Counted from the first letter of the stretch, positions 3,056-20,232 are shown. The stretch is 24,713 nucleotides of DNA from an uncultured Planctomycetaceae bacterium (GCA_964401385.1 CAYNYF010000064.1:1-24713), one strand, 5' to 3'. Numbers and translations: made by a program. Notes: generated by a model from the letters alone, not told the origin.

Positions 3056-3147
3056 CTGGATATCAGCTTATCCGCCGCCACCGGCGCCCACAAACAAATT
3101 CTACCCGCCGGCAGCGGGGCTCGGGCCCGCCCCGCCGCGCGCCGGAC

Positions 3148-3291
3148 GCTGAGTCAGGCCGGCGCCTTCATGCGCCAGCGGGCCAGGACCTCCATCCGCA
3201 AGCGCAAGGGCGTCTCGCCGTCGGCGCCATGGAGGCGCCGGAGGGCTGGTACGCGCTGCCCATGCCGGAAGACAAGCCGGTGGAGCATTAG
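3148..3291 (+). repeat. R1: 5'-truncated copy (3148-3229) of the ~250-bp R repeat, fused to a C-terminal-like coding remnant ending with 'PEGWYALPMPEDKPVEH*'
   Basis: 'gctgagtcaggccggcgccttcatgcgccagcgggccaggacctccatccgcaagcgcaagggcgtctcgcc' aligns to R3 8053-8135 and R2 5130-5210. It encodes 'AFMRQRARTSIRKRKGVS'. The downstream piece ends at stop 3289-3291. Confidence 0.6.
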
Positions 3292-3321
3292 CGAATGCGT
3301 GAGACGCTCCACTCAAACCGC

Positions 3322-3780
3322 TCAACAGTCGCGAGGGTCCCATTCAGCATCACGATTGTGTTGACTGCATCGTTGTGGCTTTATCTTGTTCAGCGCTGGC
3401 TCAAGTTCGTCAAAGGCGGCGATCTCCTCGCACCTCGCGCAGCCTCGAGTCTTCCACCACAAGTAAAGCCGCGACGGGTCGATTTTGTTCTCCTGACACC
3501 ACGCTCGGATACGAGGCCCAGCGCAATGGCGCGATCGTCTGTGTTCGGAAAAGAACCCCAGCATATCCGCGATCAGATCACCAACCCGGATGCGGAACCG
3601 GTTCTGTTTCTTCCGCCCGCCGACGTAGAGGACATTCGGCAGTCCACCCACTTCCTCTTGTTTATATTCTTTGGTGAGTGTCAAGACATAGACCGTGCCA
3701 TTATCGGGAGGCAATTCCACAGCGTCACCAAGCGTGTGGGACAGGAGGTAATCGATTCGGTAAGGCCCATGCCACGGCAT
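3322..3780 (-). CDS. hypothetical 152-aa protein on a low-GC island; weak GIY-YIG-like signature and C-terminal Cys cluster (possible small nuclease)
   Basis: Minus-strand ORF with an internal ATG at 3780 preceded by 'CAGGAGAAACGAC' (AGGAGA SD 7 nt upstream). GC is about 50-52% against about 68% in the flanks. 'GTVYVLTLTKEYKQEEVGGLPNVLYVGGRKKQNRFRIRVGDLI' resembles GIY-(Xn)-YIG-R with a longer-than-usual spacer. Cys-rich tail (C-X8-C ... C-X2-C). The opposite-strand 281-aa ORF 3295..4140 has a poor, S/R/P-rich composition and was rejected. Confidence 0.45.
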   Translation of the reverse strand: MPWHGPYRIDYLLSHTLGDAVELPPDNGTVYVLTLTKEYKQEEVGGLPNVLYVGGRKKQNRFRIRVGDLIADMLGFFSEHRRSRHCAGPRIRAWCQENKIDPSRLYLWWKTRGCARCEEIAAFDELEPALNKIKPQRCSQHNRDAEWDPRDC

Positions 3781-4095
3781 GTCGTTTCTCCTGATTCGCG
3801 GCTCAGTCTCAGACATGAGCATATCTGGCAGACAAGCGGAGGCAAGCCAAAAGTGGCCAGCGCAAGAGGCATCCGGGGCAGCCGGGCGTTCGTCGAGTTG
3901 TTCGCCCTTCAACGGGCTCAGGACAAGGCCCACGACAAAAACCTGCCTGCGGGCAGGCAGGGCTCGTGCGCGCACTGCGGCGTGCGGACGATCTACGTCC
4001 CGGGCGGAGAGGCCGTCCCCCTGCGGGAAACATTCAAGGGCGTGAAGGTCTGGGTCCTGGACGCTTCCGGGCAGCCGGTCCCCGGCCGGATGGAC

Positions 4096-4140
4096 CTGCC
4101 GGAGGGCTGGTACGCCCTGCCGCTGGAGAGACAGGATTGA
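4096..4140 (+). repeat. second copy of the 'PEGWYALP'-encoding C-terminal remnant ('...GRMDLPEGWYALPLERQD*')
   Basis: 'ctgccggagggctggtacgccctgccg' matches 'gcgccggagggctggtacgcgctgccc' at 3234-3260. Both are followed within 10 codons by a stop. Confidence 0.4.
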
Positions 4141-4164
4141 TCCGGCAGGGCTTGCCTGAACCCC

Positions 4165-4395
4165 TCAGCCCCTGTCCTCCCGATACTGGAATACCTCTTC
4201 AACGGAGCGGCCAAACGTCCGGGCGATGCGAAATGCCAATGCCAACGACGGAACGTATCCGCCGGCTTCCAGAGCAATGATCGTCTGGCGTGTAACGCCG
4301 ACTTTCTTCCCAAGCTCTGCCTGGGTCATTTCGCCATGGTCGAAGCGGAGCCGTCGAACCTGATTTGTCAGACGGTGGCGATCATCCCTGGCCAT
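4165..4395 (-). CDS. XRE-family (Cro/CI-type) helix-turn-helix transcriptional regulator, 76 aa
   Basis: '[69 protein letters not shown]' is a canonical HTH_XRE (Q-x-x-L-x-x-x-x-G-V-x-x-x-T-I-x-x-x-E). The start was trimmed from 4446 to 4395. It overlaps the upstream membrane gene's stop by 14 nt. Confidence 0.75.
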
Positions 4396-4825
4396 GGGAT
4401 AGCTCCCGCCTGCGAATGCACCAGATCGCCGCCGTTCGGACAGCACTCATGATGCCGAGGCCAAGACACAGAGCGGGAAGGAGCCAGTTGGCGCTGAACG
4501 AGATGGTCTTCTCGCCTTGTGCCGTGGCGATCGCCCAGGGAACGGCGCAGGTCAGCGTCCACAGGATCACGAGAGCGAGAGCGCCTGCGTTGTCGCCGCG
4601 AGCCCGTATCGATTCCTCGCGCTCGTCCGTGGTCGGGCCGTCTCCGTACCGCCTCCTTCTCCAGGTCAGTGCAAGGGCCCCGGCCGCGACAGGAAGGCAT
4701 CCGAGAGCAAGCAATAACACCCCCAGCAAAGCGCTGTGCTGGAGTTGGAAGACGCCCAGAGCCATGACGAAGACTCCGAGCCCGGTCAGTCCCAAGAGTC
4801 CGATCCACGATCCATCCTTTAGCAT
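4382..4825 (-). CDS. small integral membrane protein (about 4 TM helices), co-transcribed upstream of the XRE regulator
   Basis: The track ORF 4382..5236 was trimmed to ATG 4825 ('[60 protein letters not shown]...[18 protein letters not shown]...[27 protein letters not shown]'). An XRE plus small membrane protein pair is a recurrent architecture. Confidence 0.6.
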
Positions 4826-4890
4826 TGCTCGCCACACGGGATTTCCTTTCCGGCTGTAGTCGCAGTTGCACGTCAAGGTAACAGAACATG

Positions 4891-4918
4891 ATGTTATCAA
4901 AGAAGGACTAGATGTCAA
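4891..4918 (-). promoter_or_regulatory. sigma70-like promoter for the membrane-protein/XRE operon (-35 TTGACA, 16-nt spacer, -10 TAACAT) with an 11-bp palindrome 'AACATcATGTT' overlapping the -10
   Basis: Minus-strand reading 'ttgcTTGACAtctagtccttctttgaTAACATcatgtt' lies in an AT-rich (about 42% GC) 170-bp island. The palindrome is at 4885-4895 on plus-strand coordinates and is a candidate operator for the XRE protein. Confidence 0.35.
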
Positions 4919-5024
4919 GCAAATTTTACACAAACTCGGCGAATTCTCGTTGAGGACTTCCTCACACGGCATCCGACCCGGCCAGGCCTTCGTCGGGCTG
5001 TTCGGGCACGTCAGGCAGCTCGGG

Positions 5025-5277
5025 CACGGGCCCAGGGAGAGGATGAAGTCATGATCGAAATGCAGATGAAGGCGCTGTTTTTCGACTCGCCCCGCGTTCT
5101 GCGGGCGATGGACGCCGCCACGCGCCGAGAGATGTCCTGGGTCGGGGCGTTCATCCGCCAGCGGGCCAGGACTTCCACCCGCAAGCGCAAGGGCATCTTT
5201 CGTCCCGGCGGCCCGCCGCACTCCCGCGCGGGGCATCTGCGGCGGCTGAGGGGCACGGGCGGGCCTGGCGGCCGTGC
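5025..5277 (+). repeat. R2: full-length copy of the ~250-bp R repeat with SD+ATG and N-terminal coding-like sequence 'MIEMQMKALFFDSPRVLRAMDAATRREMSWVGAFIRQRARTSTRKRKG...'
   Basis: About 88-90% identical by eye to 7947-8207 (R3), with small indels that shift the downstream reading frame. 'gggagaggatgaagtcATG' with ATG at 5051. The track ORF 5051..5413 (120 aa) starts here. Confidence 0.7.
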
Positions 5278-5482
5278 CCGCATGCGGGAGGCTTGGAGCG
5301 CCACTTGGTCCTTCCGAACTATCACAGTAGTCCGCGTGGCCATCTGCTCAATCACCGGCTCTCCTGGCTGGATACTCAACAAAGCAGCTTCGTTCGCTGG
5401 CGCACTTTCCTGATTGACGTTAGTGTAGGCCTACCCTGAGCAGTGGGTATCAGGCAGCAGGCTCTGTTGCACTGTCGCTCAA

Positions 5483-6883
5483 CTATTCCGACATCAGGCC
5501 CTTGATCACGTTGTCGGGCCAGTCCTTGCTGATGCACTGGTGCTTGCCGTCGAGGCCGTACAGCACGACCTCCGGCCGCTTGGGCGAGCCGAGGGGTGAA
5601 CCCGGCGGCACCATCACGCATAGCTCCCGCGCCGAGCGCCAACTCGCCGGGGGTGCGGGCATGTATCTGTTCTCCGGGAGCCACCCCTTCTCGACAGGGC
5701 TCTGCGTCCGTCCGGTTTTCAACTCGACGATGCCGACCTCTCCTTTCTCTCCGGGCACACTGACCCACTGCGCGTCGGGGCTGAGGCGGAACATAAGCAC
5801 CAAGCTCGGCAGCGTCTTGTACGCCAAATCCGGCAGCAGCTTGGAGACGACGGCGGCGTTGCCGGGGTGGATGACGAACAAGGTAAAGTTTGTCGGCAAC
5901 GTGCCTGCCGTCGCCGGCAGCTCAACGCGCACGGAGCTGAATATGATCCGCCCGTCCGGAAGCCACCGTAGTCGGGCAAAGGGCGAAAAGAGAACGGCGG
6001 CGACTTCCTCGGTTTGGCCGGGCGGTCCGATAAGCTCACCGGCCTCCGATGCCACCCTACGCTTCACGATACTGCCCGTGTTGAGGTCCTTGCCTCGGCC
6101 GACGGCTGTGTAATACAGCAACGACCGACTGTCGGGCGACCAGTCGAACTGCCAACTGACCTCGGTCTCCAGAAGCTGCGAGCCCGTCTTGGCCTGCCCT
6201 TGTGAAAGCTGCCTCACGTGCAGCCGAGCGCCAGTGGACGATACGTCAGACCCCCCCTCCTTTGTGAGCGACTGGGTCGTGAAGGCCAGCAGCTTGCCAT
6301 CCGGGCTGGCGGAGACGTGGAGAATCCCTCCCGGGTACTCCAGGACCTCCTGGTCGGCCTTGGCCTGGCCGTTCTCGACGTGTGCCATGATGATCCGCGA
6401 GCCCTCGACCTTGGCACCCCCGAACTCCCGCCAGAGCTCGCCCAGCTTGGGCTTGAGCTCCTCGGCGTGCTTGGTCGCCAGGTACATCTTCATCATCCCC
6501 AGCGTGCTGGACGAGAGACCTTGAGTGCTGGCCATCCGGCCGAGGTCCTTTTCGGAAGAGCGAATGATCTCCGACCGGAAACGCTCGGCTAGCACGATGA
6601 CCTCCTGCTCCGTTTCAGGCGGCAGGGCCCGTTCCACCCGGTCCCATTTGGCCATGTCCGTGCTATCCACGGCCAGGAAACGCTTGGAGTCGCCAAACCA
6701 GGAAACGAAAGCGACACGTGATTCCTTCAGGCGGTTCAGCTTTCCTTTGGCGTCTGTGACATACAAGCCATCGGCCAGTACCAAAGCCTGCTGCCCGTCG
6801 GGCGACCAGCAGATTTTCTCCGGCAGGCAGCCGCCGCAGTTCAAGCCCAGTATTCCCAGTAATGCGAACAGATACGATTTCAT
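5483..6883 (-). CDS. secreted/lipoprotein-like beta-propeller protein (TolB/PD40-WD40-like repeats), 466 aa
   Basis: Signal peptide 'MKSYLFALLGILGLNCGGC'. Repeated 'SPDG' propeller motifs (WSPDGQQAL, SASPDGKLLAF, WSPDSRSLLYY, WLPDGRIIF, LSPDAQWV). 'gggagatagaa' SD before ATG 6883. The start overlaps the anti-sigma stop (ATGA). The 5' end is lower in GC. Confidence 0.8.
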   Translation of the reverse strand: MKSYLFALLGILGLNCGGCLPEKICWSPDGQQALVLADGLYVTDAKGKLNRLKESRVAFVSWFGDSKRFLAVDSTDMAKWDRVERALPPETEQEVIVLAERFRSEIIRSSEKDLGRMASTQGLSSSTLGMMKMYLATKHAEELKPKLGELWREFGGAKVEGSRIIMAHVENGQAKADQEVLEYPGGILHVSASPDGKLLAFTTQSLTKEGGSDVSSTGARLHVRQLSQGQAKTGSQLLETEVSWQFDWSPDSRSLLYYTAVGRGKDLNTGSIVKRRVASEAGELIGPPGQTEEVAAVLFSPFARLRWLPDGRIIFSSVRVELPATAGTLPTNFTLFVIHPGNAAVVSKLLPDLAYKTLPSLVLMFRLSPDAQWVSVPGEKGEVGIVELKTGRTQSPVEKGWLPENRYMPAPPASWRSARELCVMVPPGSPLGSPKRPEVVLYGLDGKHQCISKDWPDNVIKGLMSE

Positions 6884-7383
6884 TGTTCTATCTCCCGAAC
6901 CTGCATTTCAGAGGGCGAGTGCCAGTTGACAAGCGGCTTGCGCCGATCCTGAGTGGCCTTGGTTGTATCAATGAATGCCTGAAGGCTCCACAGCTCCGAC
7001 GTCCTCATGGCCGGCGTGGGCGCGGGCACGACGACGACAGACGGTTCCGGCGCGGGCAATTGCCGTTCGCGTGGAAACAGCCAGCGAGCAGACAGCCCCA
7101 CCAGCAGGCAGCCTGCCATGGCGATCGCCATGACAGCGGCCCGCCATCGTGATCGCTGACGCGGCCGTGCAGCCAGCGGCGGCAACTCCAGCCCCGCCGA
7201 CACGCTCCGCCTCTTCATCGCCTCGTGCGCCTGGGCAGCGGTCGTGAGGAGCTCCGACTGACGCGAGTTCCGTCCGGCATCCTCGGCCACAACGGCTGCT
7301 AGCAACGCCTCGACGTCTTCGGATAGCTGGCCTAGCGCCCGATCCAACATCAGTCGCTCAAGCAGGTGGGGCTCGACATTCAT
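6880..7383 (-). CDS. anti-sigma factor (single TM helix), 167 aa
   Basis: N-terminal 'MNVEPHLLERLMLDRALGQLSEDVEALLAAVVAED' is typical of an anti-sigma N-domain. TM helix 'WRAAVMAIAMAGCLLVGLSARWLF'. ATGA overlap with the upstream ECF sigma stop. Position is between the ECF sigma and a periplasmic protein. Confidence 0.7.
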   Translation of the reverse strand: MNVEPHLLERLMLDRALGQLSEDVEALLAAVVAEDAGRNSRQSELLTTAAQAHEAMKRRSVSAGLELPPLAARPRQRSRWRAAVMAIAMAGCLLVGLSARWLFPRERQLPAPEPSVVVVPAPTPAMRTSELWSLQAFIDTTKATQDRRKPLVNWHSPSEMQVREIEQ

Positions 7384-7859
7384 CTTTGATTCTCCTGTCC
7401 TCCCAACTGCTCCCGCAGTGTCCGGACGGCGTTGTGCAGGCGAGAGCGGACCGTCCCCAGCGGGATGCCCAAGACGAACGCGATTTCCTGGTACGATAGT
7501 TCGTGCTCGAGCCGCAGGTCCAGTGCTTCGCGCAACTCTGGCCCAAGCCGCCTAATGGCCCGAAGCATCATCTGAATTCGCTCATCCGGCTCCGAAGAAG
7601 CAGGAGTGGCCGGGAAGTCATCCTGGAGGGGAAGCGGGCGAGACCGTCGGTGCGACTTTGCCGCCAGGTGCCGCGCCACGGCATACAGCCACGCGCGCGG
7701 ACTCTGGAGGTGGCTCTGGCTGGCCTGCTCCACCAGGGCCCGAAATGTCTCCTGCACGATGTCCATCGCCCCATGCCGATCGCCCACCAGCCGGCGAACG
7801 TACGCTGCCAGTCGAGGTGCTTCCAATCTGTACAACGCCGCTATCTCAGTCGAGTCCAT
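7380..7859 (-). CDS. ECF (sigma-70 family group IV) RNA polymerase sigma factor
   Basis: Region 2 'DIVQETFRALVEQASQ...SPRAWLYAVARHLA' and region 4 'LRLEHELSYQEIAFVLGIPLGTVRSRLHNAVRTLREQL'. The start was trimmed to ATG 7859 (MDSTEIAALYRLEAPRLAAYVRRLVGD); 7895 is the alternative. Confidence 0.85.
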   Translation of the reverse strand: MDSTEIAALYRLEAPRLAAYVRRLVGDRHGAMDIVQETFRALVEQASQSHLQSPRAWLYAVARHLAAKSHRRSRPLPLQDDFPATPASSEPDERIQMMLRAIRRLGPELREALDLRLEHELSYQEIAFVLGIPLGTVRSRLHNAVRTLREQLGGQENQR

Positions 7860-7946
7860 CCTGGATCCCGGGGGTTTCCATAAGGATGTACCCATTCAGC
7901 CGGGAAAGTTCATCCTCCATCGGGATCTTTTTGAGTCGAGCCCGCG

Positions 7947-8207
7947 CGCGGGCTGCGGGAGGGGATGAAGTCATGATCGAAATGCAGATGAAGGCGCTGT
8001 TTTTCGACTCGGCCCGCGTTCTGGGGGCGATGGACGCCGCCACGCGCCCGGCGCTCAGGCAAGCCGGGGCGTTCATGCGCCAGCGGGCCAGGACCTCCAC
8101 CCGCAAGCGCAAGGGCGTCTCGCGGGCCCGCGAGGCGGCCCGCCGCACTCCCACGCGGGGCATCTGCGGCGGCTGAGGGGCACGGGGCGGCCCTGGCGGC
8201 CGTGGCC
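7947..8207 (+). repeat. R3: full-length copy of the R repeat; contains an apparently intact 68-aa ORF 7973..8179 ('MIEMQMKALFFDSARVLGAMDAATRPALRQAGAFMRQRARTSTRKRKGVSRAREAARRTPTRGICGG*') with SD 'GGGAGGGG'
   Basis: Direct repeat of 5025-5277 in the same orientation. Together with R2 it brackets the ECF sigma/anti-sigma/propeller module. Confidence 0.7.
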
Positions 8208-8329
8208 GGTTCTCAGGAGTGCTCCAATTCGCATGTAACCCGCTCGGCCGGACGGTCCACTCACCTTGCGCAGAAGCAGTGAGAAGAGGGCCGGCGATTG
8301 CCGGGCCCGGATGCGTGAAGGAGAAAGAC

Positions 8330-8620
8330 ATGAACGCCAGGAGACTGCGTGTGCCCAAGCCGGTGAAGTGGATTGTGACAGTGATTCTGGTCCTCGCCGC
8401 CGGGGCGCTGCTGGGCGGATGCCACAAACGCAAGGTCTTCGTCCTGCACGAACCCGGCCCGTATGTGGCCAGACACGGAAGGCGCCCCCGCGTCGTGCTG
8501 GTCGACCGCGGCAGGGACCGCCGACACAGGGAGGAGGCCCGCCATGAGCGTCGAGAACGCCCGGATAAGCGTCGTTCGGATCGCCGTCAGGACGATCGGC
8601 CCCGGCCGCGGCGACGCTGA
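8330..8620 (+). CDS. small lipoprotein (96 aa) with extremely Arg/Asp/Glu-rich C-terminal tail
   Basis: Strong SD 'GAAGGAGAAAGAC' before ATG 8330. Signal peptide plus lipobox 'WIVTVILVLAAGALLGGC'. Tail 'RGRDRRHREEARHERRERPDKRRSDRRQDDRPRPRRR'. The start was trimmed from the track ORF 8219..8620. Confidence 0.55.
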   Translation: MNARRLRVPKPVKWIVTVILVLAAGALLGGCHKRKVFVLHEPGPYVARHGRRPRVVLVDRGRDRRHREEARHERRERPDKRRSDRRQDDRPRPRRR

Positions 8621-8867
8621 GGCGGTGCCGGTGGCCGTCCGACAGTGCCCGCTGCCCGAGCGGTGGTTCGTGCTGGACCGGCTGCTATCCCGGCGGGGCG
8701 ATCCCCGTCGCCGACACCGTCGAGGCTGATCCGCCCGAACGCCGGCGCACTCGCCGGGTCAATGCAATTCCACGCATGTGACGCGACGGGTGTCCCACAA
8801 GCCGCGGCGCGTGGTACAATGCCCGCCGGACGGAGACGAAGGCAACTTCCGGGAAAGGGCAACCGCA

Positions 8868-9932
8868 ATGACCGGCGATGCAGAGGCTAAGTTCACGCGA
8901 GAGATCATCGACACCCACCCGCCGCAGGACCCCCACGTGAAAACGGCCGGCGACATCACCGGCAACGGCGCGGCCGACGTCGTCGCCGCCAGCAGCGCCG
9001 GCGGGCCGTTGGTGTGGTATGAGTCCCCGACGTGGGAGCGGCACGTGATCGCCGAGTCCGGCCGGTGGAGCTGCGACGCTAAGCTGCTCGACATGGACGG
9101 CGACGGCGACGCCGACCTGCTGATCTCCGAGTGGTACACGCACGACCGCCTGGAGTGGTACGAGAACCCCCGCCCGGCGGGGGACCCGCGCGTGGACCCG
9201 TGGAAGCGGCACGTCATGGGCAGCCCGCGGGCCCACGACATCCGACCCGGCGACGTCGACGGGGACGGGGCGATCGAGATCGTCACGCGCCAGCAGGGCC
9301 AGCCGGGAGACCGGATTGTCCTGTGGAAGCGGACGGCCGGCGATGCCTGGGTCCAGCGGGCGATTGCCTGCCCGGCCGGCGAGGGGTTGGCTGTGGCGGA
9401 CCTGACGGGCAACGGCCGGCTGGACGTTATCATCGGCGCCCGCTGGTATCAGGCCCCGGACGACGTGCTGGGCGGCGACTGGGGCGAGCACGTGCTGGCG
9501 GACTGGCCGGCCGACGCGGTGGTGGCCGTGGCCGACGTGAGCGGCAGCGGCCGCGGCGACGTGATACTGACCCGCTCCGAGGGGCCGCACCGGCTGGCGT
9601 GGTTCGAGCCGCCGGCCGACCCGATGGCCGGTAAGTGGGCCGAACACGTCGTCGACGACTCGGTGGACTTCGCCCACGGCCTGGCTTTGGGCGATCTGAC
9701 CGGCAGCGGCCGGCTGGACATCGTCGTGGCCGAGATGCACCAGTCGCCCCGCAGGCGCGTGATGGCCTACCTCAACCAGGGCGCGGGGCGGTCGTGGCGG
9801 CGGGTGATCCTCGCGGAAACGGGCAGTCACGACATCTGCCTTGCCGACGTGGACGGCGGCGGCCGACCGGCCGTCGTCGGGGCCAACTGGAGCGGGCCCT
9901 ATCAGCCTCTCGAGCTGTGGCGGCCGCGCTGA
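8868..9932 (+). CDS. FG-GAP/VCBS-repeat beta-propeller protein (ASPIC/UnbV-like)
   Basis: Repeated 'D-x-D/N-G-D-G-x-x-D' FG-GAP calcium-binding motifs (GDITGNGAADVV, LDMDGDGDADLL, GDVDGDGAIEIV, ADLTGNGRLDVI, ADVSGSGRGDVI, GDLTGSGRLDIV, ADVDGGGRPAVV). The start was trimmed to ATG 8868 (SD-like 'GGGAAAGGG'). There is no obvious signal peptide. Confidence 0.75.
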   Translation: MTGDAEAKFTREIIDTHPPQDPHVKTAGDITGNGAADVVAASSAGGPLVWYESPTWERHVIAESGRWSCDAKLLDMDGDGDADLLISEWYTHDRLEWYENPRPAGDPRVDPWKRHVMGSPRAHDIRPGDVDGDGAIEIVTRQQGQPGDRIVLWKRTAGDAWVQRAIACPAGEGLAVADLTGNGRLDVIIGARWYQAPDDVLGGDWGEHVLADWPADAVVAVADVSGSGRGDVILTRSEGPHRLAWFEPPADPMAGKWAEHVVDDSVDFAHGLALGDLTGSGRLDIVVAEMHQSPRRRVMAYLNQGAGRSWRRVILAETGSHDICLADVDGGGRPAVVGANWSGPYQPLELWRPR

Positions 9933-9933
9933 G
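9791..9933 (+). repeat. DR-A1: the last 143 bp of the FG-GAP gene, repeated at 14567-14709
   Basis: About 5 mismatches in 143 bp between the two copies, in direct orientation. Confidence 0.8.
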
Positions 9934-10278
9934 GCCGCCCCGCCATTGCTCATGCCGGGCGAGGGTGTACGCCGCCCACCGCTCACGCTGTCGGAGGTAG
10001 GGCTGTACCGACGCCCTGTCAACAACCCGCCTTGCCCGGCGCCTCTGACCAGGCCTCCCCGGCATGTAAATAGGACTCCATAAGCTGCAAATTGTGCTTG
10101 CAAAGACGGACAGGACGCAATAGAATCCTTCCTCTGTGGGACCGTTCAAGTCTACGTTGCTGTGGTAGTGTCCCAGGTTTTGATGCAATAAGCGCCTCGT
10201 CACGAGCAGTTTCAGCCGAGCTGTAGACAGGCGACCTGGACAGTGTGGGGCGCCTCTGATCTGGCAAGGAGAACGAAC

Positions 10279-14566: not shown

Positions 14567-14709
14567 GCCGTAGCGGCGGGTGATCCTCGCGGAAACGGGC
14601 AGCCACGACATCTGCCTTGCCGACGTGGACGGCGGCGGCCGACCGGCCGTCGCCGGGGCCAACTGGAGCGGACCCTATCAGCCTCTCGAGCTGTGGCGGC
14701 CGCGCTGAG
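14567..14709 (+). repeat. DR-A2: second copy of the FG-GAP gene 3'-end repeat
   Basis: Aligns to 9791-9933 at about 96% identity; encodes '...RVILAETGSHDICLADVDGGGRPAVAGANWSGPYQPLELWRPR*' with no gene body upstream. Confidence 0.8.
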
Positions 14710-16881: not shown

Positions 16882-17331
16882 CTAGCGCAGCTTGAGCCGT
16901 CGCACGAGCTGAATCCCGTTCTTGTCGAGCACCCTTCGCTGTGGTGAGTTCGGCAGTATGTTTATTCCTCCGGCACTCACCCACACAAACCTGCCTCGCT
17001 GTACTTCGTTCAGAGGTTGGCCCGTCATCCAGCTCTCGAGCCACCCCTTCTTCCTGAGCACGAGCTGGATCTCGCTGACCTTCGCCCTGTGGAATTCAAC
17101 GAAAAACGCTTTGTCATTCTTGTTGCTTATGCGATAGCCGATTGCATAGTCCCATCGGTTGGCGTTCGGGTAGGTCGCTCGCAAGGCAGCGTCTATGTTG
17201 ACGCTGCCTGCGATTCGGCGCGGGTCACGTGCATTGATGCTGGACCTATGGGCCTTGCTCAGCGAGCGGAGCCCTACACGAAAATGTGTGGCAATCTCGA
17301 GTGTGCCTTGGACAGCGGTCTTGAACTTCAT
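16882..17331 (-). CDS. hypothetical 150-aa protein, second gene of the ATPase operon (candidate effector/partner)
   Basis: Trimmed to ATG 17331, preceded by 'GAGGGACACGA' (GAGGG SD). That ATG overlaps the ATPase stop (ATGA). No cysteines and no recognisable catalytic motif. Lower GC (about 54%). Confidence 0.55.
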   Translation of the reverse strand: MKFKTAVQGTLEIATHFRVGLRSLSKAHRSSINARDPRRIAGSVNIDAALRATYPNANRWDYAIGYRISNKNDKAFFVEFHRAKVSEIQLVLRKKGWLESWMTGQPLNEVQRGRFVWVSAGGINILPNSPQRRVLDKNGIQLVRRLKLR

Positions 17332-18524
17332 TCGTGTCCCTCGGGACTGCCAGCTGCGATCTCGCCAATCACCTGGCCCACTCGACCGCTGAACTCCGTC
17401 AAGCCACCCCATCCTGCCTCTGCGGGATTGTCTGCCCCCGGATCAAGCCCGGATATGTCCCGGGCCACATGGCCTCTAGAGCCCCGTAAGCGTTCAAAGT
17501 AATAGACGCGTTTTTCCTTCCGGATAGCCGCTCGGGCGATTTTCCTCATCTCAGGGCTGTGTCTGCTAAGACCGAACATGTCAATGACCTTGTCGGGCAG
17601 AGCGCCGTAGCCCTGAATGGTTCGCAGCCCCCAGACGACATCAAGGACGTGGGGAGAGTGCGTGGACAATACAACGCGGTATCCTCGCCACAGCAACTCG
17701 AGGATGACAAGCATTACGGCCGAAATTGCTGCGGGGTGGAGGCCCATCTCAGGTTCCTCAACGATCACCCATTCGGTATCACCTCGCCGAGCGGTCTTCG
17801 CCGAAGGACAGAGCCAGTAGAGACCAAGCAGCAGCGGAACGAACTCGCGCTGCCCCGCCGACCACACCATGAAAGGAAGCTTGTCGCCTTCGCCCTGCAA
17901 AACAAGACGCCGCTGAACGCCTCCCATCCGGTCAAGCTTCAAGGAGAATCCGTGGAAGACAGCGGCATCGAGGGCCTTGCGAAGCTCGGCCTTGAGCCTG
18001 CCTGCCTGCGGAAACACGCTTGCGGTCTTGCCTCCTCCTAGGCCGGCCTGCATTTGCATACGGAGCTTCTCACTGAAGCTTGGTACAACATATGGGTCTC
18101 CTGCGGCGAAATCGGTAAACGGCCTCGGCCACCCCATGCTCAGCGACAACACCCGCTGGGCGGGAATGTACAACATCTTCTCCATGCGCTTGTGACGTTT
18201 GGCTTTCGCGAAGTTCTTCAACCTAGTGGGAAGATCAACATGCTCTTCTTCCCAGACAAGGACGCTGGCGCCGCTTCCTGATTCCGTCCACACGCCCCGC
18301 ATGCCCTCGCCCAAGTACAGGTTTAGGAAGAGGTTCAAATTGCCCTCCCACTCATACCCGTACCTCTTCAGATCGTCGGTGATCTTTGGGCCGTCAACCA
18401 TCAGTTTCAGGAACTGAAGGAAGATGCTCTTCCCACTGGCCTGGGGGCCGACAAGCACGGTCAGGTCGCCGAACTCAACATTGGCGTCCTTGAGCGGTCC
18501 AACGTTCTGCAAGGCGAGCTTCAT
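17328..18524 (-). CDS. ABC/SMC-like AAA ATPase (AAA_21/AAA_15-type, OLD/AbiEii-like ATPase head without nuclease domain), 398 aa
   Basis: N-terminal 'LTVLVGPQASGKSIFLQFL' is a Walker A at residues about 22-34. Walker B/D-loop 'WVIVEEPEMGLHP'. H-loop 'VLSTHSP'. A roughly 200-aa insertion separates Walker A and B, as in SMC-like/AAA_21 ATPases. SD 'CGGAG' 9 nt before ATG 18524. Confidence 0.8.
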   Translation of the reverse strand: MKLALQNVGPLKDANVEFGDLTVLVGPQASGKSIFLQFLKLMVDGPKITDDLKRYGYEWEGNLNLFLNLYLGEGMRGVWTESGSGASVLVWEEEHVDLPTRLKNFAKAKRHKRMEKMLYIPAQRVLSLSMGWPRPFTDFAAGDPYVVPSFSEKLRMQMQAGLGGGKTASVFPQAGRLKAELRKALDAAVFHGFSLKLDRMGGVQRRLVLQGEGDKLPFMVWSAGQREFVPLLLGLYWLCPSAKTARRGDTEWVIVEEPEMGLHPAAISAVMLVILELLWRGYRVVLSTHSPHVLDVVWGLRTIQGYGALPDKVIDMFGLSRHSPEMRKIARAAIRKEKRVYYFERLRGSRGHVARDISGLDPGADNPAEAGWGGLTEFSGRVGQVIGEIAAGSPEGHE

Positions 18525-19555: not shown

Positions 19556-19686
19556 TTCTATCCTCACTCCTGCGGCGTCCCTGCCTGATCGCGCCGCCCA
19601 TCGGCGCAGAGCAAAGATACTACTATCTTGGCGGCAATGCTCAAGTGTCTGCTTGCCTGACCTATCCGGAGTTTGCCGAACCGGGC

Positions 19687-20232
19687 TGGGAGCTGGCAAC
19701 TGCGCGGGTGGCGAGAGCCATGGAATGAGACATCGCCGAGACAATTCCGGTGCGTGCGAGCACGCACCCTACGCCCCGCCCCAGCCCCATCGGGGCGTCT
19801 TGACCGGATGGGCAGGCAAGGCGCCCCTACGGGGCTCCGGCCGGGCTAACCCGGCCACCTCCCAGGGCTCGCGCCCTGGGCTAAGAAAGGCGCCCCTGCC
19901 GGGGCTGCCCGTGGAACCGGCCACACGTCAGTCTGCTTGCGGGTTGCACCGGGCGGGGCGGGAGCCGGCAACTGCGCGGGTGGCGAGAGCCATGGAATGA
20001 GACATCGCCGAGACAATTCCGGTGCGTGCGAGCACGCACCCTACGCCCGGCCCCAGCCCCATCGGGGCGTCTTGACCGGATGGGCAGCCAAGGCGCCCCT
20101 ACGGGGCTCCAGGGCGGCGAAGCCCTCCACCTCCCCGGGCTGGCGCCCTGGGCTAAGAAAGGCGCCCCTGCGGGAGCTACCCATGGAACTGGCCACACGT
20201 CAGTCTGCTTGCGGCTTGCACCGGGCGGGCCC
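19687..20232. repeat. tandem direct duplication, period ~273 bp, 2.0 copies (plus a short partial third start at about 19644), extremely GC-hairpin-rich
   Basis: Unit 1 'gggagctggcaactgcgcgggtggcgagagccatggaatgagacatcgccgagacaattccggtgcgtgcgagcacgcaccctacgcc...' recurs from 19961. Each unit contains the 8-bp-stem hairpin 'GGTGCGTG-cgag-CACGCACC' and several GCCCC/GGGGC stems. No ORF is conserved between units. Confidence 0.8.

Follow-up and report, generated by a model that had tools for sequence, protein, structure and literature searches.

Between about 3.1 and 8.2 kb of a 24,713-nucleotide contig from an uncultured Planctomycetaceae bacterium (GCA_964401385.1 CAYNYF010000064.1:1-24713; the whole contig is hereafter called the window), three copies of a repeat, which we call R, alternate with modules of unrelated genes. 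An initial annotation of this DNA likened it to a cassette array or a hotspot of tandem accretion, for example one in which elements integrate into the 5' end of one small gene and bring a replacement 5' end. What is R, and how did the array come about? Our analysis indicates that the region at 3.1-8.2 kb is probably a prophage-remnant array, built by recombination of variants carrying different cargo and then by deletion. R and two further kinds of repeat are short fragments, or stubs, of three phage genes, i.e., a gp10-like tail gene, a small-lipoprotein gene (lpp) and the tape-measure gene (TMP). The host molecule is most likely a Planctomycetota chromosome; the window has a GC content of ~65%, and outside the array the contig carries ordinary chromosomal genes (Band_7, FG-GAP, N_methyl, PfkB and URO-D). 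No other phage-like parts of the window were seen by composition-corrected blastx against phage open reading frames (ORFs), which replaced a tblastx comparison with phage loci whose output was dominated by noise from GC-rich sequence.

Repeat search and three-way alignment place the three copies at ~3143-3221 (R1), 5017-5277 (R2) and 7939-8207 (R3), all in one orientation (+ strand), as initially annotated; the 88-90% identity given for R2 and R3 becomes 235 matches in 272 alignment columns, that is, 86.4% when gaps are counted and ~91% when they are not. R1 is 5'-truncated, covers only the mid-part of the unit and shares 87% identity with R3 across 79 nt. The ~12 nt at 3132-3143 are conserved left flank, present in relatives without R, and lie outside the real R1 homology; alignment of the left flank with the R-less contigs L019 and L021 stops at ~3130-3148, and the joint between R1 and the flank is a GC-rich microhomology. 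Each full copy has a GGAG-type Shine-Dalgarno (SD) sequence and an ATG, and both encode the N-terminal peptide MIEMQMKALFFDS...RKRKG, again as annotated. The reported loss of a common frame after RKRKG is real and is due to a 5-nt insertion in R3 directly behind this motif (near 8127-8133), relative to both R2 and the parental phage gene. The ORF starting in R2 is 120 aa long; that of R3, annotated as an intact 68-aa frame, does exist, yet it comprises 67 aa and a stop codon and is frameshifted against the phage gene. Codons ~26-33 of R (5127-5150, 8049-8072 and L001 2475-2500) diverge far more than the rest of the repeat, a pattern that points to gene conversion in patches or to exchange with other homologues.

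R is not a chance similarity and, in the sequences searched, is confined to this type of locus. Within the window, 16-mers of R2 recur solely in R1 and R3, and a metagenome-wide scan with a degenerate pattern returned nine stretches, all of them either this locus type in a sister strain or intact phage genes. Neither approach found dispersed copies of the repetitive extragenic palindrome/miniature inverted-repeat transposable element (REP/MITE) type, the outcome that would have told against the initial annotation.

The R copies are, judged by sequence, pseudogene fragments of a ~143-aa phage tail-completion/gp10-like gene. A word-indexed protein search with R retrieved just the two ORFs of the window itself and one 96-aa protein of the sister strain; wider relatives were reached through back-translated DNA scans instead. 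These scans revealed intact genes of ~143 aa, sharing 53-68% identity with R over their first 66 residues, in four Planctomycetota metagenome-assembled genome contigs (L005-L008), in the viral contigs L009 and L032 and 70 other IMG/VR contigs, and in the metagenome contigs L011-L018. The gene of L032 is ~80% identical to R at the DNA level. The intact genes adjoin a Phage_tail_2/phrog_1407 major tail gene and a tape-measure gene (phrog_8462, E=1.6e-44), a context found in L009, L012, L049 and 74 of the 80 viral loci. In most phage contigs, e.g., L049, the gp10-like gene lies upstream of the major tail gene; in L009, L035/L036, L042 and L054 it is positioned just upstream of the tape-measure gene, and in L035/L036, L042 and L054 directly after lpp. 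The initial annotation had likened the peptide to small phage virion-morphogenesis proteins (Mu gpG/HK97 gp10-like). Origin from a phage virion gene is borne out by the neighbours, and the gp10-like identity of the parent gene is right in kind, with gene context as its main support: intact homologues match phrog_5 ("tail completion or Neck1") weakly (E=0.0028 and 0.011) and gave no Pfam match, the R peptides gave neither a Pfam nor a PHROG match, and the gp10-like protein has no match in the cultured-phage collection. Two long phage-like contigs, L012 (4962-7270) and L018, carry a perfect 1154-bp tandem duplication over the gp10-like and major tail genes, which may be either an assembly artefact or real.

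None of the window copies is full-length. R1 holds codons ~28-52 (~3146-3221; tblastn of L032 residues 28-55 against 3149-3229, 71% identity, E=8e-6). The gp10-like part of R2 (5051-5248, +) holds codons 1-66 and is colinear with the phage gene (68% identity to L032 over 66 aa, tblastn E=3e-25), and that of R3 (7973-8176, +) holds codons 1-66 with the frameshift, so that tblastn matches it in two segments. In R2 and R3 phage homology stops at ...GHLRRL, which is codon 66, and from ~8177 the sequence is right flank, chromosomal and common to relatives. It might be argued that R is a functional family of small proteins consisting of the N-terminal domain only, which arose by ordinary duplication. 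Indeed, SD and ATG are kept in each full copy, codons 1-25 of R2 and R3 are identical, and gene callers predict proteins from them (P0001 and P0002). However, the copies have three different C-termini, R3 is frameshifted and R1 truncated, and the databases contain just three such proteins, every one from this type of locus. Moreover, the identity between R2 and R3 reaches into non-coding flank, indicating recent duplication or gene conversion rather than selection. We therefore regard a functional gene family as very unlikely.

R is a real repeat family, as annotated, but treating it as the only one missed three things: a TMP stub directly in front of R2, a second repeat family derived from lpp, and the chromosomal origin of its own last ~28 nt. 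The lpp stubs were recognized at two positions. The first (3222-3291, +) comprises the last ~20 codons and the stop (lpp of L032, residues 103-118 against 3223-3270, tblastn E=2e-4), is fused to R1 one frame out of register and forms a direct repeat with 4083-4121. The second (3976-4140, +) is a 5'-truncated pseudogene that runs from the lipobox cysteine to the stop and lacks a signal peptide (L032 residues 67-120, 67% identity, tblastn E=6e-23). Both encode ...MDLPEGWYALP...stop. With 3883-4137 as the query, phmmer against 1.8e9 representatives returned 220 small proteins at E<=1e-3; the members retrieved and aligned share an N-terminal transmembrane (TM) helix, a lipobox and a conserved ~55-aa domain ending in MDLPEGWYALP. 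The family is encoded by 130 IMG/VR contigs, and in 74 of the 80 that were retrieved (L025-L104) a gp10-like gene lies on the same strand within ~2.5 kb; in L049, for example, lpp (5847-6179) is directly upstream of the tape-measure gene. The cultured-phage collection gave one weak match.

The TMP stubs are likewise two in number. The ~70 nt upstream of the R2 ATG are found again in 32 phage contigs, directly downstream of lpp, where they are the 5' ends of tape-measure genes. A nucleotide profile built from 63 phage tape-measure starts matches the window at 4956-5031 (+, directly upstream of the R2 ATG; nhmmer E=2.1e-9) and at 3854-3906 (+, including ..ASARGIRGSRAFVELFA..; nhmmer E=4.9e-9, tblastn E=0.008), and also matches sister-strain contig L105 at 3947-4022 (nhmmer E=2e-11). 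A possible TMP-like remnant upstream of R3 was ruled out, as identity to R2 and to phage in that stretch is at background level. Between the first TMP stub and the second lpp stub, downstream of an operon of an XRE-type regulator and a protein with four TM helices (4-TM), a consensus scan marks a hairpin followed by a T-run (3942-3961, -), a putative terminator.

Taken together, we read the window from left to right as follows, with primes denoting stubs: left flank, gp10' (codons 28-52) joined to lpp' (3' 20 codons), a 152-aa ORF (-), TMP', the hairpin and lpp' (lipobox to stop); then the XRE and 4-TM genes (-), TMP' followed by gp10' (1-66) and 28 nt of flank, the genes for a beta-propeller protein, an anti-sigma factor and an ECF sigma factor (-), and gp10' (1-66) joined to the right flank. 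The array may thus be described as a series of units, each consisting of an lpp 3' stub, antisense cargo and a TMP/gp10 5' stub. The succession lpp', TMP', gp10' is all on the + strand and colinear with L032, and the succession gp10', lpp', TMP' follows the gene order usual in these phages. All cargo in the window is antisense to the stubs, and cargo 1 (the 152-aa ORF) and cargo 2 (the XRE/4-TM pair) are both flanked by an lpp 3' stub on one side and a TMP 5' stub on the other.

In the phages themselves this position is a variable one. Of 73 phage contigs that have both genes, 47 leave <=17 nt between the lpp stop and the TMP start, and 26 have 96-923 nt inserted there, often with antisense ORFs. 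The contents include an antisense GNAT gene (L062, L065 and L092), an antisense DUF6946 gene (L089), Mom (L067 and L094), a PAPS reductase gene (L100), the gp10-like gene itself (L035/36, L042 and L054) and several antisense ORFs without assigned identity. The lpp-TMP junction is hence an intergenic slot for accessory ("moron") genes in this phage family. The closest counterpart to the window is L032, in which lpp, an antisense 161-aa ORF, a TMP' stub and the gp10-like gene follow one another in the order of window 3976-5248, including the same TMP'-gp10 joint (3215-3282); in a scan of IMG/VR with a junction-spanning pattern it was the sole match. L032 also holds a second tape-measure 5' piece (3774-3845), fused to a terminase-large-subunit-like ORF (3747-4625; phrog_38, E=1e-12), and may itself be a remnant rather than a phage.

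A structural comparison with a sister strain shows that the array differs at the edges of its repeats. The two sister contigs, L001 (4.7 kb) and L105 (12.2 kb), are 99.7% identical to each other; with the window they share 95-97% identity on the left side of the array and ~91% on its right side. Their order is left flank, lpp'' (signal peptide plus 3' end, with an internal deletion), XRE and 4-TM genes, TMP' followed by gp10' (1-52) joined to lpp'; then GNAT (-), the 3' stub of the gene that follows TMP (L105 4804-4893), a TM protein (-), GNAT (-) and gp10' (52-66) joined to the right flank. Cargo 2 (4165-4825) is retained, lying in a block 95% identical to L001 1417-2542. Window 3143-4069, the unit with the 152-aa ORF, corresponds to 76 bp in L001, and window 5195-8133, with the ECF operon, corresponds to the GNAT/TM/GNAT segment at L001 2543-4412; neither cargo 1 nor cargo 3 (the ECF operon) is present in the sister strain. 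The gp10'-lpp' joint occurs in both strains, but at another position of the array (3222 region homologous to L001 2463-2592, 81.5%), and may lie at a short microhomology between gp10-like ..CAGCCGGG.. and lpp ..CAGCCGGT... The accretion hotspot suggested in the initial annotation is therefore supported, and its content varies between strains at repeat edges. Right-flank homology begins at 8134 in L001/L105 and at ~8165-8185 in the distant relative L108, where a sulfatase-like gene is upstream of the right-flank gene; contigs with the left-flank genes in common (L019-L024) continue into other genes past ~3130-3148 and contain no stubs. With both flanks adjoining other genes in relatives, the array sits at a synteny breakpoint. 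An apparent R remnant left of the right flank in L108 was discarded, since its alignment overlaps the end of the real sulfatase-like gene and is not trustworthy.

The same comparison reveals how R2 and R3 are related. A sliding comparison shows R2 to be a mosaic: left of ~5030 it is L001-like (90-97%), whereas to the right of 5037 its identity is 97-100% with R3 but only 75-85% with the L001 copy. The breakpoint between strains therefore falls at the 5' edge of R, and R2 and R3 have been recently duplicated or homogenised. The last ~28 nt of the repeat are common to R2, R3 and the sister strain and align with the right flank of the R-less L108, i.e., they are chromosomal; the R2 tail (5249-5277, +) is a copy of the chromosomal sequence found after R3. 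Since R2 carries ~28 nt of the flank of R3, the two copies duplicate one chromosomal junction and are not independent imports.

These findings bear directly on the integrating elements that the initial annotation offered as an example. In its integrase-mediated form, this account has small elements insert at an att site within the 5' portion of the gp10-like gene; every element supplies a replacement 5' end, and successive insertions build up the array of 5' fragments. Same-orientation repeats do flank unrelated modules, the modules do differ between strains at repeat edges, and the a-c joint, the L001 y-b joint and the R2/R3 indel cluster at gp10 codon ~50-53. Such elements, however, would leave the last copy completed by the rest of the gene, and no R copy continues into it; R3 passes into chromosomal flank at codon 66, and R2 with its ~28 nt of flank duplicates that very junction. 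The junctions otherwise lie in different genes (gp10 codon ~52, gp10 codon 66, TMP codon ~20-25 and the lpp lipobox), and because they differ by unit and by gene there is no common att core and a site-specific system is unlikely. In line with the annotation, no integrase or transposase family matched among the ORFs scanned in the window, none is listed in the gene tables of L001/L105, and tRNA and Rfam scans of the window found no element. Finally, L108 shows the same architecture from unrelated stubs. Integrase-mediated accretion into a living gene is thus improbable.

The array of L108 lies ~4 kb away, at 4915-7708, and its order is an lpp' stub, GNAT (-), D1, a 209-aa ORF (-), D2 plus D1, a methyltransferase gene (-), D2 and so on. 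D1 (67 nt) is a Dit'-3' stub, the 3' end of the gene after TMP, and D2 (65 nt) is the 5' part of the next gene; each is duplicated, with 78-79% identity between copies. L108 presents a second example of the architecture, built from other stubs at another slot.

How could such units be strung together? We infer that each cargo module was added by recombination of two related sequences that carried different cargo at one slot. This could take place by a single off-register crossover at the level of microhomology, or by Campbell-type homologous integration of a superinfecting phage into a resident stub, followed by loss of the essential phage genes. Both routes would leave scars between cargos in which the 5' stub of a downstream gene abuts the 3' stub of an upstream gene, as in TMP'-lpp' and gp10'-lpp'. 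The R2/R3 pair would stem from a like event at a time when the right flank already cut off the phage fragment. As chromosomal flank is part of the duplicated unit, the partners in this event would have been two variants of the chromosome. The stubs would not be expressed genes and would persist as scars, although they may hold promoters or terminators of the convergent or divergent cargo genes, and they may now supply homology for gain, loss and exchange of modules.

A related account is the decay of tandem prophages: related prophages with different morons, integrated side by side at a normal att site (polylysogeny), suffer large deletions that leave only the slots. It would yield the same TMP'-lpp' and gp10'-lpp' scars, deletion within a tandem dimer being topologically equal to an off-register crossover, and it accommodates an array at a synteny breakpoint with other neighbours in L019-L024 and L108. 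Yet it needs repeated ~40-kb deletions whose ends would have to fall in the same two or three genes every time, it leaves the R2/R3 duplication with its chromosomal flank unexplained, and no att site, tRNA or integrase remnant was seen in the window. We consider this account unlikely, if less so than integrase-mediated accretion.

Several observations weigh against recombination at a phage slot as the origin of the array. Duplicated TMP stubs occur in one of 83 phage loci (L032), so that accretion in free phages is not shown and seems tolerated, or to occur, mainly in chromosomes. At 5278-5482, to the left of the ECF operon, blastx revealed no recognisable stub at the module's edge. The chromosomal origin of the last 28 nt of R rests on a short, GC-rich alignment with L108 at ~70% identity. 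Measured along gp10, the L001 gp10'-lpp' and y-b joints are no more than ~10 nt apart and coincide with the R2/R3 indel; this clustering near gp10 codon ~50-53 could hint at a site preference, which recombination at the slot does not need. The cargo of the window is absent from the retrieved phage contigs and from scans of close relatives in IMG/VR, which are of low sensitivity: scans with the 4-TM, propeller and 152-aa proteins returned nothing, exact-sequence contig look-ups for the propeller and 152-aa proteins gave no record, and the only match is a 26% GNAT-GNAT similarity involving the sister strain. A phage origin of the cargo therefore rests on position and orientation only. Moreover, the comparison covers only two strains plus a distant relative, and an integrase could lie beyond the 24.7 kb of the window, which is one contig.

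The cargo itself is diverse, and the identities initially annotated stand for the XRE regulator, the ECF sigma factor and the propeller protein; the matches of the 4-TM and anti-sigma proteins are weak, and the 152-aa ORF has none. Cargo 1 (3322-3780, -; in a lower-GC stretch, ~0.59) encodes this 152-aa protein, which matched nothing in Pfam, PHROG, NCBIfam, PADLOC or PDB, and whose single-sequence AlphaFold (AF2) model is unusable (pLDDT 38). By eye it shows GIY-YIG-like motifs (VYVL..LYVGG..R..E..PALN), which neither profile, PDB nor structure prediction supports. Cargo 2 consists of the XRE-type helix-turn-helix regulator (4165-4395, -; Pfam HTH_3, E=4.6e-12) and the DUF2178-like 4-TM protein (4382-4825, -; weak Pfam match), with a promoter-like site at 4918-4891 in a consensus scan. 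Cargo 3 consists of a PD40 beta-propeller protein (5483-6883, -; Pfam), a putative anti-sigma factor (6880-7383, -; weak NCBIfam match) and an ECF sigma factor (7380-7895, -; start possibly at 7859) with Pfam r2 and r4 domains (E ~1e-12 to 1e-14); PADLOC found no match in it.

Elsewhere on the contig, two adjacent genes at 16882-18524 (-) match the PADLOC candidate defence system PDC-M56 (A, E=3e-144; B, E=1.5e-42) and sit in the contig's lowest-GC stretch (~57-59%). A 141-nt direct repeat, 97% identical (9793-9933 and 14569-14709), surrounds a 4.8-kb segment encoding a protein with an N_methyl motif; L105 has ~2.2 kb of other sequence in its place (7843-10034), so that the contig has a second variable region delimited by repeats. 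At 19682-20225, a 272-nt unit occurs twice in tandem, with 92% identity between the copies.

What do these findings mean? The odd repeat array can be explained without a new recombination system, and an accessory-gene hotspot is recognized within the tail-gene block (lpp-TMP) of an uncultured Planctomycetota phage family. The duplicated ends of the flanking genes show how cargo can stack and then outlive the phage in the host chromosome. More speculatively, the chromosomal lpp, TMP or gp10 stubs might serve as recombinase-independent "landing pads", at which any superinfecting phage of this family integrates by homology, its lethal part is deleted and the slot cargo remains. We hold this to be possible but doubtful. 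If it were true, the host clade would have a standing means to harvest phage accessory genes into an array that grows, exchangeable among strains via the same homologies, and thus a simple integrase-free route from phage accessory genes to the host accessory genome.

Comparison with known systems sharpens this picture. Integron arrays and clusters of attC sites lacking integron-integrases (CALINs) share a superficial likeness. attC sites are imperfect palindromes of 55-140 nt that fold as single strands, and a CALIN lacks IntI. An integron-like or CALIN cassette array, with R as the recombination site, would account for unrelated, short and promoterless-looking modules between ~90%-identical repeats and for cargo that all points one way relative to them. 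R, however, is 260 bp of phage coding sequence, and its single-stranded DNA fold is not significant (z -1.31 on the + strand and -0.48 on the - strand), unlike an attC-type site. No IntI-like ORF was found in the window (by itself no decisive point against a CALIN), the junctions are heterogeneous and formed from stubs of different genes, and the modules include multi-gene operons with promoter-like and terminator-like signals of their own. An integron-like origin is thus extremely unlikely. Islands that accrete at tRNA, tmRNA or other gene ends likewise leave direct repeats of the gene end between insertions; unlike these, the present array has no integrase in the window, its target is not regenerated, and its repeats derive from each other and from chromosomal flank. 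Unlike REP/MITE elements, R has coding ancestry and, in the sequences searched, its copies are not dispersed. Integrons, integrase-driven island arrays and REP/MITE families are thus all set aside, each on a defining feature that was tested.

Closer parallels are found among phages and their remains. Rousset and colleagues are said to have described, in 2022, hotspots of accessory genes in P2 and P4. The lpp-TMP junction resembles these as a fixed slot between conserved genes with diverse, fast-exchanged cargo (filled in 26 of 73 contigs). It differs in that the cargo (GNAT, Mom, PAPS reductase, DUF6946, XRE/4-TM and the ECF operon) has no PADLOC defence match and in that the slot lies inside the tail-gene block and, in the window, outlives the phage. 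Cryptic or "grounded" prophage remnants, of which the DLP12/Rac-type remnants of E. coli and HK97-type morons are examples, come closest: they, too, combine fragments of phage structural genes without a complete phage, strain variability and accessory genes kept with their own signals. Morons, and homologous recombination of phages with prophage remnants, are established phenomena, and cryptic remnants can recombine with superinfecting phages (PMC6379469). Unlike in such remnants, only stubs of ~50-200 nt are left here, repeated and stringing together several cargos bounded by the same two or three phage genes. The R2/R3 duplication, moreover, takes in chromosomal flank, and both the Planctomycetota host clade and the phage family are uncultured. 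What is unusual, then, is the repeated and still readable stub scars that join several cargos, and their recurrence with other stubs in a relative.

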